A stretch of DNA of 24,058 nt from an uncultured bacterium. Lineage in GTDB: Bacteria; SAR324; NAC60-12. The DNA is taken from the NCBI GenBank assembly GCA_964010765.1, contig CAXGMD010000053.1:1-24058 (forward strand), read 5' to 3'. The notes below the pieces were generated by a model that was not told the DNA's origin, ran no database searches, and worked only from the letters and a program-made list of their open reading frames with translations. Position 1 is the first letter of the stretch. The number at the start of each line of letters is the position of its first letter. The position numbers were made by a program, and so were the translations under genes. Shown here one piece after another: positions 16,705 to 21,856 of this stretch.

Positions 16705-16857
16705 GTTGGGGCGTCTATTGCTTGTGGTTTCGAGAAGTTGGTTGCAATCTAATTCCTTTCTTCAAAATTTTCTCTATTCTCTAATGTGTTGAACAAACAA
16801 CTAAAGCAAATCCTTACAGGATTCTGAAATTTTGACTCATCATACTGTTTGAAAGTT

Positions 16858-19113
16858 ATGGATACAGTTTCAGATCAGGCCACCGTACAGGAATCACAAA
16901 AATCGTCTTTGCAGATTAGTTTCTATATTTTTCGCGCGTTGGCATTTGCAGATCGTAACAGGTCAATCGCATCGTTGGTTGGAGTAGTCTTGCTCGTCAC
17001 TCTTTGCGACATTCTTTTCGATGCCGTCCTCTTCGAGCCATATAAGGGTGTCATTGCCTTCTTCAGCGGTAGTTTCCCAGAGGGCTTTGAAGGTGTTGAT
17101 ATGGGGTTCAGTGCGGAAGTCTGGCAAGCCCTTCTAGGAATGATCTTGGGAACTTTGATCCTGGTCATTTCGATTGCTTCCCAAAGTATTCCAAAACTGA
17201 TCGACCTCTACATGAAAGATCTCCCCAGTTTGATCTACGTGTGGTTTTTGATCGTTTCGGGAATGCATGCAATCCTCATCAACCTATATGCCGATATTGA
17301 TCTGGTCCGCCCTGCGAGCCGAGTTTTTAACACCCATATTCTTCTTGTTCTCTCAGCATTTTTTGCATTTCCTTATATTTTCTACATTCTGCGGTATACC
17401 AAACCAAGTAACGTAATTAGTCGCATTTATGGGAACAATATTGATCAAATTCACGATCTGACAACGGAAAGAGCCCAGGCACTTATTACAGTGCCAAATA
17501 TCCGTGAACAGTACCAAGTTCAGATGTTCGAGGCTTTGAACCAGTTGGATGACATTCTAGAGTATGTGTCTTTTAAGGAACTCAAAGCGGATATCATTCA
17601 CCAGATGAGTTTGACGATTCATGAATATGTTCGAGTCAAATCTCATATTGGTGAAGAATTCTTCTCAGTGACGCCCAAAGTGCGAACCGACATCAGCTTT
17701 AAGACTATGATTGGTCAGTACGGGGACATGGAAAAAACAAAGACATTTTATGAGCAGAAGTTATTCCGCCTGCTCGGAAACGTTTACATACGTCAAATTG
17801 AAGATGGATCATTTGATCTGGCTTCATTGGTGGCGGCAGAAATGTCCGAAATCGGTCTAACAGCAATTGAATTAGAGGATGATCGTTTAGTAGATGTCAT
17901 CATCATTCGATTCAACACTCTTCTTCGATTTGCGATCAAGCATGCGATCAAGAACAACGAAGCTAGAAACCTTTATAACGTCGCGTTCCACTATGGGAAT
18001 TTTGTAAATCATCTGGCAGATTATCAGCGGATTGATTACCTCAAACGCTGCTTCATGTACTTCAGAATTTATGGTATTGAAATCTTTAAGCATGGGAAAA
18101 ATAGCCCTGCTCTGTATTTTATTGTCGATGTCATTGCCACTGAGATGAAAAAACTGTTGGAGAAGGTTTATAACGAGAAGTGGGATAGGGATTTACAAAC
18201 TCATCTGCTTGGAGAAATTCTGCAGGTTGATAACCCACCGGATGTTAATAAAGAGGACCTAGATCAAGGTGTTCTGATAAATAACGGAGTGAGAATTCTG
18301 CAGATTGGATTGGCTCTTTTCTATGAGCGACATAATGATGAGGAGTTTGTTGAGAAAATTCTTAAAGACGTAATGGATGATGTTAACGTTCTCGGGGAAA
18401 TTAACTTTAGCAAGGTAATTGAAATCTCATGTGGTCGATTGAAATTCGCAGGACCCACCTTTTGGGAAGATACTGACCGTGGAAATCTCAATATTTATTA
18501 CACACCAGATCAAAATTTAGTCGATGGTTTCAAGGTAAAACTATACGAACGCGCACGTCTAAAATTAATCGAGACGGTCAGCAAAGAGTTCCGTTTGGAA
18601 GAAGAAGAGGCTCAACTTTTGTGGGAGATGTCTAGATTGATGGATGTTAAAGATTACAAGGCAATTTCTAAGAAGGCCGAAATATTTGAGCAGTCAATTC
18701 AGAAATTAGGACAACTGGACTATAAGAAGTTAGATCTCTTGGTGAAGCTAAGGGAGAAGTTGAGGTTCACCTCCGAAAACCCGGATCTGGTTGTGGGAAA
18801 TTCCCGTCAGGTAGCTCCAGGAGTACAGCTAACTGCAAGTTATAGATCACCCACAGATCATCAAAAGAATGAAGAGTTCAGCGCTCTTGTCAGGTTTAAC
18901 TCTCCGAATTTCATTTATATTGAACCCAGTGACCTAAAACAACTTCCTGCCTCAAATAAAGAGCAGCCGCTGCCAATCACATTCCGTTTCACGACAAGCC
19001 GACATAAGCGTGTTTACCAGTTTACTTCACAGTTTGATCCATCAAAACCTCAGGAGCGGAACCTGTATCGTGTTCTGCACACCGAGAAGGTGAAAATCAT
19101 CGCAGAGGGCTAA
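16858..19113 (+). CDS. Large membrane protein: N-terminal TM block (DUF2254-like), helical cytoplasmic region, C-terminal YcgR-N/PilZN-like module
   Basis: Long uninterrupted ORF with 4-5 N-terminal hydrophobic segments. Domain calls are pattern recognition only. ATG 16858 preferred over TTG 16849. Confidence 0.7.
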   Translation: MDTVSDQATVQESQKSSLQISFYIFRALAFADRNRSIASLVGVVLLVTLCDILFDAVLFEPYKGVIAFFSGSFPEGFEGVDMGFSAEVWQALLGMILGTLILVISIASQSIPKLIDLYMKDLPSLIYVWFLIVSGMHAILINLYADIDLVRPASRVFNTHILLVLSAFFAFPYIFYILRYTKPSNVISRIYGNNIDQIHDLTTERAQALITVPNIREQYQVQMFEALNQLDDILEYVSFKELKADIIHQMSLTIHEYVRVKSHIGEEFFSVTPKVRTDISFKTMIGQYGDMEKTKTFYEQKLFRLLGNVYIRQIEDGSFDLASLVAAEMSEIGLTAIELEDDRLVDVIIIRFNTLLRFAIKHAIKNNEARNLYNVAFHYGNFVNHLADYQRIDYLKRCFMYFRIYGIEIFKHGKNSPALYFIVDVIATEMKKLLEKVYNEKWDRDLQTHLLGEILQVDNPPDVNKEDLDQGVLINNGVRILQIGLALFYERHNDEEFVEKILKDVMDDVNVLGEINFSKVIEISCGRLKFAGPTFWEDTDRGNLNIYYTPDQNLVDGFKVKLYERARLKLIETVSKEFRLEEEEAQLLWEMSRLMDVKDYKAISKKAEIFEQSIQKLGQLDYKKLDLLVKLREKLRFTSENPDLVVGNSRQVAPGVQLTASYRSPTDHQKNEEFSALVRFNSPNFIYIEPSDLKQLPASNKEQPLPITFRFTTSRHKRVYQFTSQFDPSKPQERNLYRVLHTEKVKIIAEG

Positions 19114-19138: not shown

Positions 19139-19438
19139 ATGTCTGACGCCAAAGCTGATCGCAAACAGTATCAAATTACAGTCAACGGTAACCGATTTGC
19201 GATTGCAAGTCCTTATGGCGAAGAGCACATAAGGAAAGTGGAGAGCTTCTTGGAACAACAAATTTCAACGATTCAGCAAAGCTCTAGCTCCATTTCCTCC
19301 AGTAATTTATACTTGTTGGTAGCCTTGAATCTGGCTGATCAGTTGATGAGACAGAAGCAGCAACCGCAGTATGATGAGATGGAAAAAAATCTTCGTGATC
19401 TTTGCGAAAGACTTGATCAGGTTCTCGTCCAAGCCTGA
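19139..19438 (+). CDS. zapA: Cell division protein ZapA
   Basis: ITVNG.RF.I, EEH..KV..FL, LLVALNLADQL pattern with coiled-coil tail; GAGG RBS; followed by 6S RNA as usual. Confidence 0.85.
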   Translation: MSDAKADRKQYQITVNGNRFAIASPYGEEHIRKVESFLEQQISTIQQSSSSISSSNLYLLVALNLADQLMRQKQQPQYDEMEKNLRDLCERLDQVLVQA

Positions 19439-19444
19439 ATTCAC

Positions 19445-19473
19445 TTGCCCAGATGGGCTGTATTCGATAGGAT
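19445..19473 (+). promoter_or_regulatory. Possible promoter for 6S RNA
   Basis: TTGCCC (19445-19450), 17 nt spacer, TAGGAT (19468-19473). Confidence 0.35.
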
Positions 19474-19514
19474 TTAGTATGGTCTAAAAATCACATTGCC
19501 TGTGATTTTTTGCC

Positions 19515-19696
19515 GAGAAGTCCTGCGGTTCTCGTGATGACAAACTTTTGTTGCCTTTTCATCACCACGCGGAGATTGTCCCTGAGAATGGTGAGCACGC
19601 CTTTATCAAGGAAGCCTAAAATTCTTACACGCTTCTCCACCTATTCGGGCTAGGCATCAAATGCCCATTTGTTCACACGGTTCTCGTGGGCTTCTC
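19515..19696 (+). ncRNA. ssrS: 6S RNA
   Basis: 182 nt directly after zapA. Ends pair (GAGAAGTCC/GGGCTTCTC); further arms GACAAA/TTTGTT, TGCCT/AGGCA, GGAGA/TCTCC, TGAGAAT/ATTCTTA around a central bubble, giving the 6S rod shape. Confidence 0.8.
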
Positions 19697-19728: not shown

Positions 19729-20640
19729 ATGGAACTGCTACTTCAAGAATTTATGGAATGGTTGAAGTCGCAATCCTACTCAGAAAGTAGCCTGAAAAAC
19801 CACCACGATGACACTCAGCAGTTTCTACAATGGTATGCAGCCACCACAGAGGCAGGAGATCTCGTAAAGGTCAATCGCTCGCTTATGGAACAATACCGAG
19901 ATCAGTTGCTTGATTTTATGCAACCCAGCTCGGTTTGCCGTCATCTCTCTTCCCTGAAACTATTTTTAAATTGTGCAGAGGGAAAGAACTGGATTCGTGT
20001 CAACCCACTACATCTTGTAAAGTTTCCTGAAATTCCTCCAAAACCCCCAGAACTCTTGAGTACAAAAGAGGTTGAAGATTTATTGGAGGCTCCTTCAGAT
20101 GATCATTATCTTGGACTGCGAGATCGGGCAATGTTGGAGCTGCTCTATTCAAGTGGTTTGAAAGTCCACGAATTATTGAATTTAGACATCTCAGATTTAT
20201 TTTTGGACTTGGGTTTTCTGAAGGTGCGAGGTCGAAGGGAGCGAATGGTTCCGGTCACTACAATGGCGATTGAGGTCCTTCAAAAATACCTCAAACAAGG
20301 CAGGCAAGGCAGGCTGCGTTACGAAGCAGATTTATGCTTATTTCCCAATAGAGATGGTGAGAGGATGACGAGGATTGGGTTCTGGTTCATGATTAAGAAG
20401 CACGCAAAACGAGCTAGAATTCAGAGCCGTATCAATGCACGTATCCTCCGTCATTCGTTCGCAGCGCACTTGTTGGAGAATGGGCTAGATTTGACTGATC
20501 TGGCTCAACTCTTTGGATACGTCAGCTTGGATGCTACTCTTCAATATGCCCATATCAACCGACCAGATTATGTTGAGGTTTATCGGAGATGTCACCCAGG
20601 GATCGTCGGAGTTGTGAATCGAGATCAGAATGGGTCGTAA
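19729..20640 (+). CDS. XerD-like tyrosine recombinase homologue with degenerate active site
   Basis: RDRAMLELLYSSG, ERMVP, MTRIGFW, LRHSFA.HLLENG.DL, terminal Y...HP. Start moved to ATG 19729 because the listed TTG 19669 lies inside 6S RNA. Confidence 0.85.
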   Translation: MELLLQEFMEWLKSQSYSESSLKNHHDDTQQFLQWYAATTEAGDLVKVNRSLMEQYRDQLLDFMQPSSVCRHLSSLKLFLNCAEGKNWIRVNPLHLVKFPEIPPKPPELLSTKEVEDLLEAPSDDHYLGLRDRAMLELLYSSGLKVHELLNLDISDLFLDLGFLKVRGRRERMVPVTTMAIEVLQKYLKQGRQGRLRYEADLCLFPNRDGERMTRIGFWFMIKKHAKRARIQSRINARILRHSFAAHLLENGLDLTDLAQLFGYVSLDATLQYAHINRPDYVEVYRRCHPGIVGVVNRDQNGS

Positions 20641-21856
20641 GCGTGTCTTCGTCACAGGCATGGGAATATTCTGTCCACTCGGTGGTGAAATAAAAGAATT
20701 CTGGAATAATCTCTCCCACGGGAAATCAGGTGTCCATCACATCACCAGATTCGATCCAACCCCCTCCCTGACTCAGGTCGCTGGGATCATTCAAAATTAT
20801 GATGCTAAGGGTTATTTTTCGCCCAGAGAGCAGCGATCTTGTGAAGCCTTTGTACAATACGGTTTGCTTGCAGCAAGAGAAGCAATAGCACAGTCTGAAA
20901 TTACTGGTCCTGACCTAGCTAAATGTGCTGTTGTTGCTGGGACGGGAATTGGGGGAATTGTTTCCTATAAACCTGCGTACGACGCACTATATCTTCCAGA
21001 GACAAATAAGAAGATCAATGCTTTCACAATTCCCAGAATGATGAATAATGCGCTCTCAGCACAGATTGCAATCAATCATGGCTGCAAGGGTCGGAATCTC
21101 ACTGTAAATACAGCCTGTTCTTCTGGAGCAAATGCAATTGGTATTGGTGCAGAATGGCTCCAGGCAGGTCTTTATGACACGGTAATTTGTGGAGGAGCCG
21201 AAGCCCCTGTTACTTATGAATTACTACGAACATGGGAGGCGATGGGAGTGCTCTCAAGGAGTAAGGAAAATCCGGAACGGGTATGTAAGCCATTTGCGAT
21301 GGATCGAGATGGCTTTGTGCTCAGTGAGGGAGCTGCTATGATCGTTCTTGAGACAGAGGAGTCCTGCAATCGAAGAAATCAATCACCGATCGCAGAGCTG
21401 ATTGGGTTTGCTTCGAATTGTGATGCAGAAAGTTTAACAAGCCCAGAACTGGAGGGAGTGAGCCAAGCAATTCAAAAGGCTATGAAAGATTCAGAGATAT
21501 CCCCAATTGATGTAGATTGCATAAATCTACATGGAACGGGTACGAAGTTGAATGATCAAATGGAAGGAGCGGCAATCAAGAAAATCTTTGGTGATCAAAT
21601 TCCTCCTTGTACTGCCAGTAAGTCGCAATTAGGACATAGCATGGGGGCTGCTTCTGCTATTGAAGCGGTCGTTTCTGCACTATCCATTCAGCATCAAGTC
21701 GTTCCACCAAGCTTGAACTGTCAACCTACTGACCCGGCATGTCATCTGCAAAATCTCTCACCAGTTTCACGCAAACATAAAATCCAAAATGTGCTTTCAA
21801 ACTCCTTTGCCTTTGGAGGCAGCAACGCTTGCTTGGTGTTTCGCTCATGCAACTAA
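20630..21856 (+). CDS. Beta-ketoacyl-ACP synthase (FabF-like)
   Basis: RVFVTGMG, TACSSG (catalytic Cys), DGFVLSEGA, HGTGT..ND, KSQLGHSMGA, SNSFAFGG; Cys-His-His triad intact. Confidence 0.92.
   Translation: MGRKRVFVTGMGIFCPLGGEIKEFWNNLSHGKSGVHHITRFDPTPSLTQVAGIIQNYDAKGYFSPREQRSCEAFVQYGLLAAREAIAQSEITGPDLAKCAVVAGTGIGGIVSYKPAYDALYLPETNKKINAFTIPRMMNNALSAQIAINHGCKGRNLTVNTACSSGANAIGIGAEWLQAGLYDTVICGGAEAPVTYELLRTWEAMGVLSRSKENPERVCKPFAMDRDGFVLSEGAAMIVLETEESCNRRNQSPIAELIGFASNCDAESLTSPELEGVSQAIQKAMKDSEISPIDVDCINLHGTGTKLNDQMEGAAIKKIFGDQIPPCTASKSQLGHSMGAASAIEAVVSALSIQHQVVPPSLNCQPTDPACHLQNLSPVSRKHKIQNVLSNSFAFGGSNACLVFRSCN

Follow-up and report, generated by a model that had tools for sequence, protein, structure and literature searches.

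An XerD-like gene with an altered active site

The stretch of DNA analyzed here (the window, 24,058 nucleotides from an uncultured SAR324 bacterium) carries an open reading frame whose product, referred to as protein A, is an orthologue of XerD. Its residues were mapped against E. coli XerD, taken from the K-12 record, and the counts over 55 sequences given below comprise 54 of 57 loci plus the query, three fragments having been dropped.

19139..19438, + strand: zapA, upstream of the 6S RNA; a zapA homologue occurs in 21/47 protein A loci
19517..19696, + strand: 6S RNA, directly upstream of protein A (Rfam 62.9 bits, gathering threshold 46.4)
19729..20640, + strand: protein A (P0001), XerD orthologue with an altered site, 303 aa, open ORF, identified by profile, fold and alignment
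20161..20163, + strand: Lys145 (AAA), E. coli R148 (Arg-I); Lys in 55/55 orthologues (AAA 36, AAG 19)
20227..20241, + strand: shortened catalytic-Lys loop, residues 167-171; Arg169 in protein A; of 55 orthologues, 42 have Lys here and 13 have Arg
20440..20451, + strand: Arg238 (CGT at 20440), E. coli H244 (His-II), and retained Arg241 (20449), E. coli R247 (Arg-II); each Arg in 55/55
20518..20520, + strand: Tyr264 (TAC), E. coli H270 (His/Trp-III); Tyr 52, Phe 2, gap 1 of 55
20545..20547, + strand: retained nucleophile Tyr273 (TAT), E. coli Y279; Tyr in 54/54 ungapped sequences, never Phe
20569..20607, + strand: C-terminal helix (residues 281-293) with a conserved His-Pro; its docking in the cleft of paralogue B is predicted (see below)
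20630..21856, + strand: fabF-like gene, sharing 11 nt with the 3' end of protein A; in 11/47 protein A loci

The gene reads open from 19729 to 20640, as the first-pass annotation had stated in reporting neither stops nor frameshifts. Its start was placed at the ATG, since Met occupies that position in 102 of 121 orthologues; a TTG at 19669 was rejected as the start because it lies inside the 6S RNA and the orthologues favor the ATG. The product has the two-domain tyrosine-recombinase fold and the length (about 300 aa) of an XerD and is nearer XerD than XerC. In profile searches it scored 229.9 bits on the XerD model TIGR02225, which is below that model's equivalog cut-off of 329.6, and 200.2 bits on the XerC model; the family profile gave 246.6 bits with XerD and 185.7 with XerC. 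Retention of the fold, which had been claimed at the outset, agrees with the AlphaFold (AF2) model, in which protein A is predicted to adopt the Xer fold with a pLDDT of 89.6. Protein A formed one clade in the tree (support, 1.0), with the branch points of A and of its paralogue B left unplaced.

The neighbors of protein A vary among 47 loci, the 6S RNA/zapA arrangement, a glutamate-cysteine ligase-like gene and fabF all being found, and a ParA-like ATPase gene lies directly downstream in 6/57 loci. No conserved operator was seen upstream of protein A. Most of the ORF is covered by RNA contigs in three metatranscriptomes, contigs that show neither transcription, strand nor level. Several features nearby were recorded separately. 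Protein A is followed in several genera (L116:5947-7469, L114, L120, L200) by genes for a ParA-like ATPase and for a protein of 250 aa without a Pfam family above the cut-off. Directly upstream of zapA in the window (16849-19113, + strand) is a gene for a 754-aa membrane-type protein that matched nothing in Pfam or NCBIfam. A contig of run X1 covering the 6S RNA (window 19470-19691) has a depth approximately 45 to 100 times that of its neighbors and starts 47 nt upstream of the Rfam match.

Alignment to E. coli XerD and reading of the codons placed the substitutions exactly where the first-pass annotation had them. The beta-hairpin Lys loop of protein A is two residues shorter than that of E. 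coli XerD and contains no Lys, and Glu148 (Glu-I) is retained and is invariant in the orthologues. The catalytic set of the family is thus K-(K/R)-R-R-(Y/F)-Y rather than the canonical R-K-H-R-H/W-Y. The earlier description of four of six catalytic residues as replaced stands order-wide for Arg-I, His-II and His-III; a loop without any Lys was found in 12/55 orthologues, at five separate places in the tree. Because loss of the Lys is not family-wide, and because the deletion blurs the register (R167 or R169), we regard three replacements as order-wide and the fourth as recurrent. The change of TRQ to TRI in the DNA-recognition helix, to which significance had also been attached, is not distinctive, since Gln is present in only 47/64 canonical XerD-like representatives. 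Loss of the FtsK-contact residue E184 was set aside as evidence for a similar reason, Glu being present in only 8/64 of these representatives.

Conservation across a SAR324 order

The query family comprises 36 genomes and its sister family 19, together 55 relatives of one SAR324 order. Orthologues of protein A were found in 50/55, made up of 34/36 query-family and 16/19 sister-family genomes (two copies are cut short by contig ends), compared to 0/5 genomes of another order, and the gene is kept in two closed genomes of 1.6-1.7 Mb. Named homologues of protein A belong to the SAR324 cluster. When 185,579 species genomes were scanned with family-derived patterns, 57 loci were recovered, labelled SAR324, Lambdaproteobacteria, Deltaproteobacteria or unclassified, a distribution that is partly circular given the origin of the patterns.

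An alignment of 121 proteins contained Lys at Arg-I in 120, Arg at His-II in 119, Arg at Arg-II in 121, Tyr in 117 and Phe in 3 at His-III, and the nucleophile Tyr in 119; the residue pattern agreed in 47 loci after removal of two duplicates and one non-orthologue. Among 197 aligned domains, representing 149 of the best 150 representatives at 50% identity (the 150th, P0046, is a family member already in the 121-protein alignment), the full K-R-R-Y-Y signature was confined to three proteins, all members of the family. Lys145 is the sole invariant position among 16 Lys-majority columns and is never Arg, though Arg is one transition away. The Arg at His-II is encoded by all six Arg codons among the 55 sequences. 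Values of dN/dS for protein A were 0.045-0.083 over seven pairs, indicating strong purifying selection. The first-pass annotation had proposed a check of the orthologues, holding that normal catalytic residues in them would speak against its reading; the substitutions proved to be shared, with dN/dS far below 1, and normal residues were not what the orthologues showed.

Recent pseudogene decay or sequencing error might be suspected from the score below the XerD cut-off and from one relative (G032) whose copy reads with stops. The break in G032, however, is an assembly gap of Ns. Contigs from four independent sequencing runs were unchanged at the altered codons wherever they covered them, and one of these contigs spans the entire stretch with three differences elsewhere, its run being possibly the source of this DNA. 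With the same residues present order-wide amid full synonymous codon variation, dN/dS near 0.05 and agreement between independent contigs, decay or error is so improbable as to be negligible. Being fixed throughout the order, these residues reflect neither chance nor recent decay; judged from these sequence comparisons, the altered active site is an old, selected state.

As a side observation, 32 XerD-like proteins (e.g., P0170, P0179, P0200, P0234, P0251 and P0259) form one clade (support, 0.996) with a short Lys loop and frequent Arg-I-to-Lys or His-II changes. Its two named clusters are clostridial, and it possibly represents a parallel erosion of XerD catalysis.

Paralogue B, FtsK and the intact recombinases

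The remaining components of a putative Xer system were sought in the genome to which the window belongs (G000, 92% complete) and in its relatives, with the following features being of consequence.

G000:C2:103666-104574, - strand: paralogue B, the second Xer, more degenerate than protein A
L039:10664-11575: further paralogue B locus, behind glnB
G000:C13:42660-43595, - strand: truncated FtsK, 312 aa, N-terminal membrane domain without motor, between coaD-like and trpD-like genes (named by sequence resemblance)
G000:C9:50728-51681, + strand: recombinase C, an intact plasmid-type tyrosine recombinase present in 35/36 query-family genomes
L040:6729-7685: further recombinase C locus, same family
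L154-L166 (e.g., G039:C1:914075, G044:C1:1447195, G045:C5:566166): recombinase D loci with palindrome

The XerC model was exceeded at its cut-off in 0/61 genomes and the XerD model TIGR02225 in 0/88. Both cut-offs are strict (controls, 3/14 and 4/14, respectively), and seven other strong Xer matches were therefore looked at individually; these were rejected as canonical XerC or XerD, being sporadic, often tandem, mobile-element-like genes. Tandem Xer-like matches of 530-870 aa were likewise rejected as strong candidates because their high scores came from the summing of two domains. The asymmetric Xer synapse suggested by the first-pass annotation requires an active canonical partner; none was found in these searches, and the second Xer is more degenerate still. 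Apart from this question, about 50 proteins of 490-870 aa (among P0124-P0264) were seen to hold two tandem Xer-like units whose catalytic sets are for the most part intact; in G081:C14, pairs of neighboring genes beside a primase-like gene encode units of a similar kind; and chain 14 of PDB 9i5v, a 401-aa protein named as the ribosome-associated inhibitor RaiA, is an Xer-like recombinase over its N-terminal 295 residues.

Paralogue B was detected in 38/55 relatives (E below 1e-10) and lies behind glnB in 27/30 loci. It has the Xer fold (pLDDT, 87.1) and a profile match to protein A of 99.9%, with dN/dS of 0.15-0.19 in two pairs. Arg-I, His-II, His-III and Tyr vary freely among 29 paralogue B sequences, and only Arg-II is kept (28/29). 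Paralogue B is likely a former XerC, as suggested by scores of 138.6 bits on the XerC profile versus 111.1 on the XerD profile, although NCBIfam matches are split. Prediction of an A-B complex gave a score of 0.63, compared to 0.00 for the best control, a mark reached by 116/157 solved pairs and 2/215 mismatched pairs; runs agreed in at least 80% of contacts, and partner pLDDT was at least 79. The predicted interface is a reciprocal swap of C-terminal helices, each placed in the cleft of the other protein on conserved residues. Proteins A and B are thus predicted to pair by helix swap, a prediction that may reflect solved Xer dimers and that speaks of likeness to them, not of binding. Searches of G039, G044 and G041 did not recover paralogue B. 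Its absence from the G039 and G044 searches indicates that protein A does not need B; in G041 (92% complete, 6 contigs) recombinase D is present, and neither A nor B was found.

FtsK is the activator of XerD, according to the accessible part of PMC5052618. The FtsK ATPase (motor) was found in 1/61 genomes and the gamma domain in 1/61 (controls, 8/14), and the N-terminal FtsK_4TM domain was found in 79/88 genomes, mostly in short ORFs. Since the short membrane-domain form is so widespread, the activator is truncated and not merely unassembled, and since this truncation is class-wide, it also covers lineages without protein A. The single full-length FtsK, in G022, was rejected as native: it lies on a 17-kb contig whose five matched proteins are 27-36% identical to proteins of the window's own genome, G022 carries the short form as well, and the full-length gene is probably foreign.

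Two other tyrosine recombinases are intact. All six catalytic residues of recombinase C are canonical in 30 aligned sequences, one ambiguous base aside, and its dN/dS is 0.04-0.07; no conserved site adjoining it was seen in the query family, and G013 showed no clear skew switch near it. Recombinase D, a Cre-like protein 33-37% identical to plasmid integrases, is present in 14/19 sister-family genomes and in 7/7 high-quality ones. An 11-6-11 dif-like palindrome lies just upstream of D in 12/14 loci (one of the others has no upstream DNA, and one is unexplained), compared to 2/57, 0/30 and 0/30 in control loci. Within the 400 kb examined of the closed G039 genome, cumulative GC skew peaks 11 kb away from the D site (914,075), which lies some 28 kb from the dnaA antipode; that of G044 is about 41 kb from the antipode and 115 kb from the skew maximum, the two genomes being of one genus and hence not independent. 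Looking for what marks a single-recombinase Xer system, an intact catalytic set and a gene-linked dif-like site, we found both in the sister-family D and neither in protein A. By sequence, D and its palindrome make a candidate FtsK-independent dimer-resolution module. At several D loci, the gene that follows appears LexA-like, judging by its first codons only. One sister-family locus, L126:1495-2052 (- strand; G045:C5), encodes a 186-aa recombinase-like protein consisting of the catalytic domain only, which has Lys in the Arg-I position and Gln-Thr-Leu-Arg in the His-II/Arg-II positions; short matches of this kind recur in the sister family.

Searches for a site belonging to protein A gave no candidate. 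Counts of the canonical dif pattern in 61 genomes were not clearly above a reversed-pattern control, although a diverged site would escape this search, and counts of an XerD-arm pattern in five genomes were not clearly above control. The D-type palindrome was not enriched in the query family, where the best matches in the window's own genome fell below all 12 true sites. Terminus-enriched k-mers in 400-kb windows of G039, G044 and G013 were only tRNA and low-complexity words, and neither these windows nor pattern searches and upstream regions contained a protein A binding site or a terminus-clustered motif. GC skew in the contigs of the window's own genome and in G013 was too weak to locate a terminus. 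An 11-6-11 palindrome near the G013 antipode was rejected as a terminus site because it is a dispersed, genus-specific repeat (56 and 22 copies in G013 and G022; e.g., G013:C1:3941930). This repeat, which contains an 8-6-8 palindrome with a fixed spacer, resembles a non-autonomous element or a repeated RNA. An additional, shorter gene of the GyrA/ParC family (G000:C61:1719-2942; G013:C1:773704-774945) was present in both query-family genomes examined and was not found in three sister-family genomes.

Function of protein A and comparison with known systems

The effects of comparable changes are known from Cre, for which the accessible part of PMC2943603 reports that only the Tyr and the general-acid Lys are strictly required, that R173K is inactive in vitro and active in vivo, that H289R and H289K (His289 is His-II) are inactive, that W315Y is near wild type in vivo and that K201R has low activity only; its authors suggest that recombinases without Arg-I may be inactive yet keep Arg-II and Tyr. 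Protein A stacks a weak change, a dead one and, in 12/55 orthologues, a near-dead one, a combination that favors no cutting, and from these residues it is likely that protein A no longer cuts DNA. The idea of a repurposed, non-catalytic protein put forward by the first-pass annotation thus holds as far as fold, shared substitutions and purifying selection are concerned; the loss of catalysis that it also contained is deduced from residues, and no canonical synapse partner was found (0/61 genomes for XerC, 0/88 for XerD).

The invariance of both the new residues and the nucleophile Tyr also fits a remodelled site that is still catalytic. The Arg at His-II would then take the phosphate contact lost through Arg-I to Lys, and Tyr264 would position Tyr273; protein A might make one strand exchange or nick, FtsK-free and with dead B as a scaffold, leaving the Holliday junction to host enzymes or replication. 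All six positions are constrained (K 55/55, K/R 55/55, R 55/55, R 55/55, Y/F 54/54, Y 54/54), unlike those of B; Cre tolerates R173K in vivo and W315Y, and in IntDOT a different Arg stands in for the absent Arg-I (PMC8138268, part of the text). Moreover, RecA was found in 5/5 genomes, so that chromosome dimers should form, and no recombinase C site was found in the query family. On the other hand, Cre H289R and H289K are inactive, the strictly required general-acid Lys has been lost repeatedly (12/55) from a loop that is itself shortened, no dif rose above background, and each family has fixed an intact recombinase, C or D, the latter accompanied by a site. We consider continued catalysis, the chief alternative to a non-cutting protein A, to be rather unlikely.

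Together, a fixed altered site, a more degenerate sister Xer and a motorless FtsK point to an XerD that is likely non-cutting and likely a DNA-binding chromosome organizer. B. subtilis XerD retains a canonical catalytic site. It is described as performing recombination-independent SMC unloading at the terminus (Karaboja et al. 2021, via PMC8523169, PMC10945525, PMC12322038 and PMC8357415), the only recombination-independent job of XerD described in the accessible parts of these sources. SMC was found in 5/5 and ScpB in 5/5 genomes, and ScpA in 77/88, the search of the window's own assembly being negative for ScpA; since ScpA is also present in lineages without protein A, co-occurrence with SMC does not discriminate. 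Because no site for protein A was found, the SMC step rests on analogy. Our main reading, to which we give a probability of about 0.5, is that protein A is the non-cutting, single XerD of this SAR324 order, a DNA-binding chromosome-segregation factor with B as its predicted partner, acting most likely in SMC unloading near the terminus. Taken alone, SMC unloading as the retained job is a doubtful identification drawn from B. subtilis, and a different terminus-organizing or bridging role may fill its place.

A quite different proposal is that protein A, with or without B, has been domesticated to regulate transcription, or as a general nucleoid protein, with no part in segregation. The highly conserved DNA-binding helices would suit such a protein, as would the failure to find a terminus-clustered site, the variable neighbors of protein A and the position of B behind glnB in 27/30 loci. 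We regard it as unlikely, since no conserved operator lies upstream of protein A, the oligomerization tail is retained, and both the retention in 1.6-1.7 Mb genomes and the ParA-like ATPase directly downstream in 6/57 loci point to chromosome handling.

Under the segregation-factor reading, loss of the FtsK motor and gamma domain would have left XerCD no longer activatable, dimer resolution would have passed to recombinase C or D, and XerD, with XerC where kept, would have been retained for DNA binding as a non-cutting segregation factor, the basic pocket of protein A still clamping the phosphate while Lys at Arg-I blocks cleavage. A broader and more tentative proposal, which we think somewhat less likely than not, is that XerCD-FtsK dimer resolution was retired order-wide, FtsK being reduced to its membrane domain, that XerD and XerC became a non-cutting, chromosome-organizing heteromer with Arg-I to Lys as a selected safety catch, and that FtsK-independent dimer resolvases arose twice by domestication of plasmid-type recombinases, in one case together with a new dif-like site. 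Protein A would be a natural separation-of-function experiment on XerD. If it is non-cutting, a non-recombinase job of XerD keeps the gene order-wide after catalysis and FtsK activation were lost, giving a clean handle on that other job, an issue that streptococcal YnbA raises as well. If it cuts, it has a new tyrosine-recombinase active-site chemistry.

A literature search on SAR324 XerD and FtsK and on dead or degenerate Xer proteins, outside which most subscription journals fell, returned no description of a SAR324 system. Protein A shares with E. coli XerD (PDB 1a0p, 5dcf; TIGR02225) the fold, length, RDRAMLELLY, MTR..FW, LRH.FA.HLL and the terminal His-Pro, and a second Xer paralogue is likewise present beside it, as in E. 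coli XerCD/dif/FtsK. It differs in that three catalytic positions are replaced order-wide, the Lys loop is shorter and the partner is degenerate, and the searches turned up neither the FtsK motor and gamma domain (1/61 genomes apart) nor a dif clearly above control. The SMC-unloading XerD of B. subtilis offers a recombination-independent job in SMC-ScpAB bacteria that would explain the keeping of a non-cutting XerD, whereas no XDS-like sites were found for protein A and its SMC role is proposed by analogy. Archaeal XerA/dif, an FtsK-independent single-recombinase system (PMC5357621, as far as its text is accessible), and Cre/lox are models for recombinase D, which has a linked 11-6-11 palindrome and belongs to a lineage without an FtsK motor, and not for protein A.

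By analogy, protein A would work most like streptococcal YnbA beside XerS/difSL. In streptococci, XerD/YnbA is degenerate and shows no activity on difSL, dimers being resolved by XerS (PMC1914069, in its accessible part; compare the title of Reichmann and Hakenbeck 2002); as with protein A, an altered XerD-named protein coexists with a single intact recombinase that has a linked dif-like site of its own. YnbA lacks the extreme C terminus and XerS needs FtsK (same part of PMC1914069), whereas protein A keeps the C-terminal helix and the Tyr. A score of 30.7 bits on the YnbA model NF002685 (cut-off, 178), together with the C-terminal helix, marks protein A as an analogue of YnbA and not a member of its family. 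Compared to the YnbA system, SAR324 also keeps a second degenerate Xer, a motorless FtsK and Cre-like or plasmid-type substitutes.
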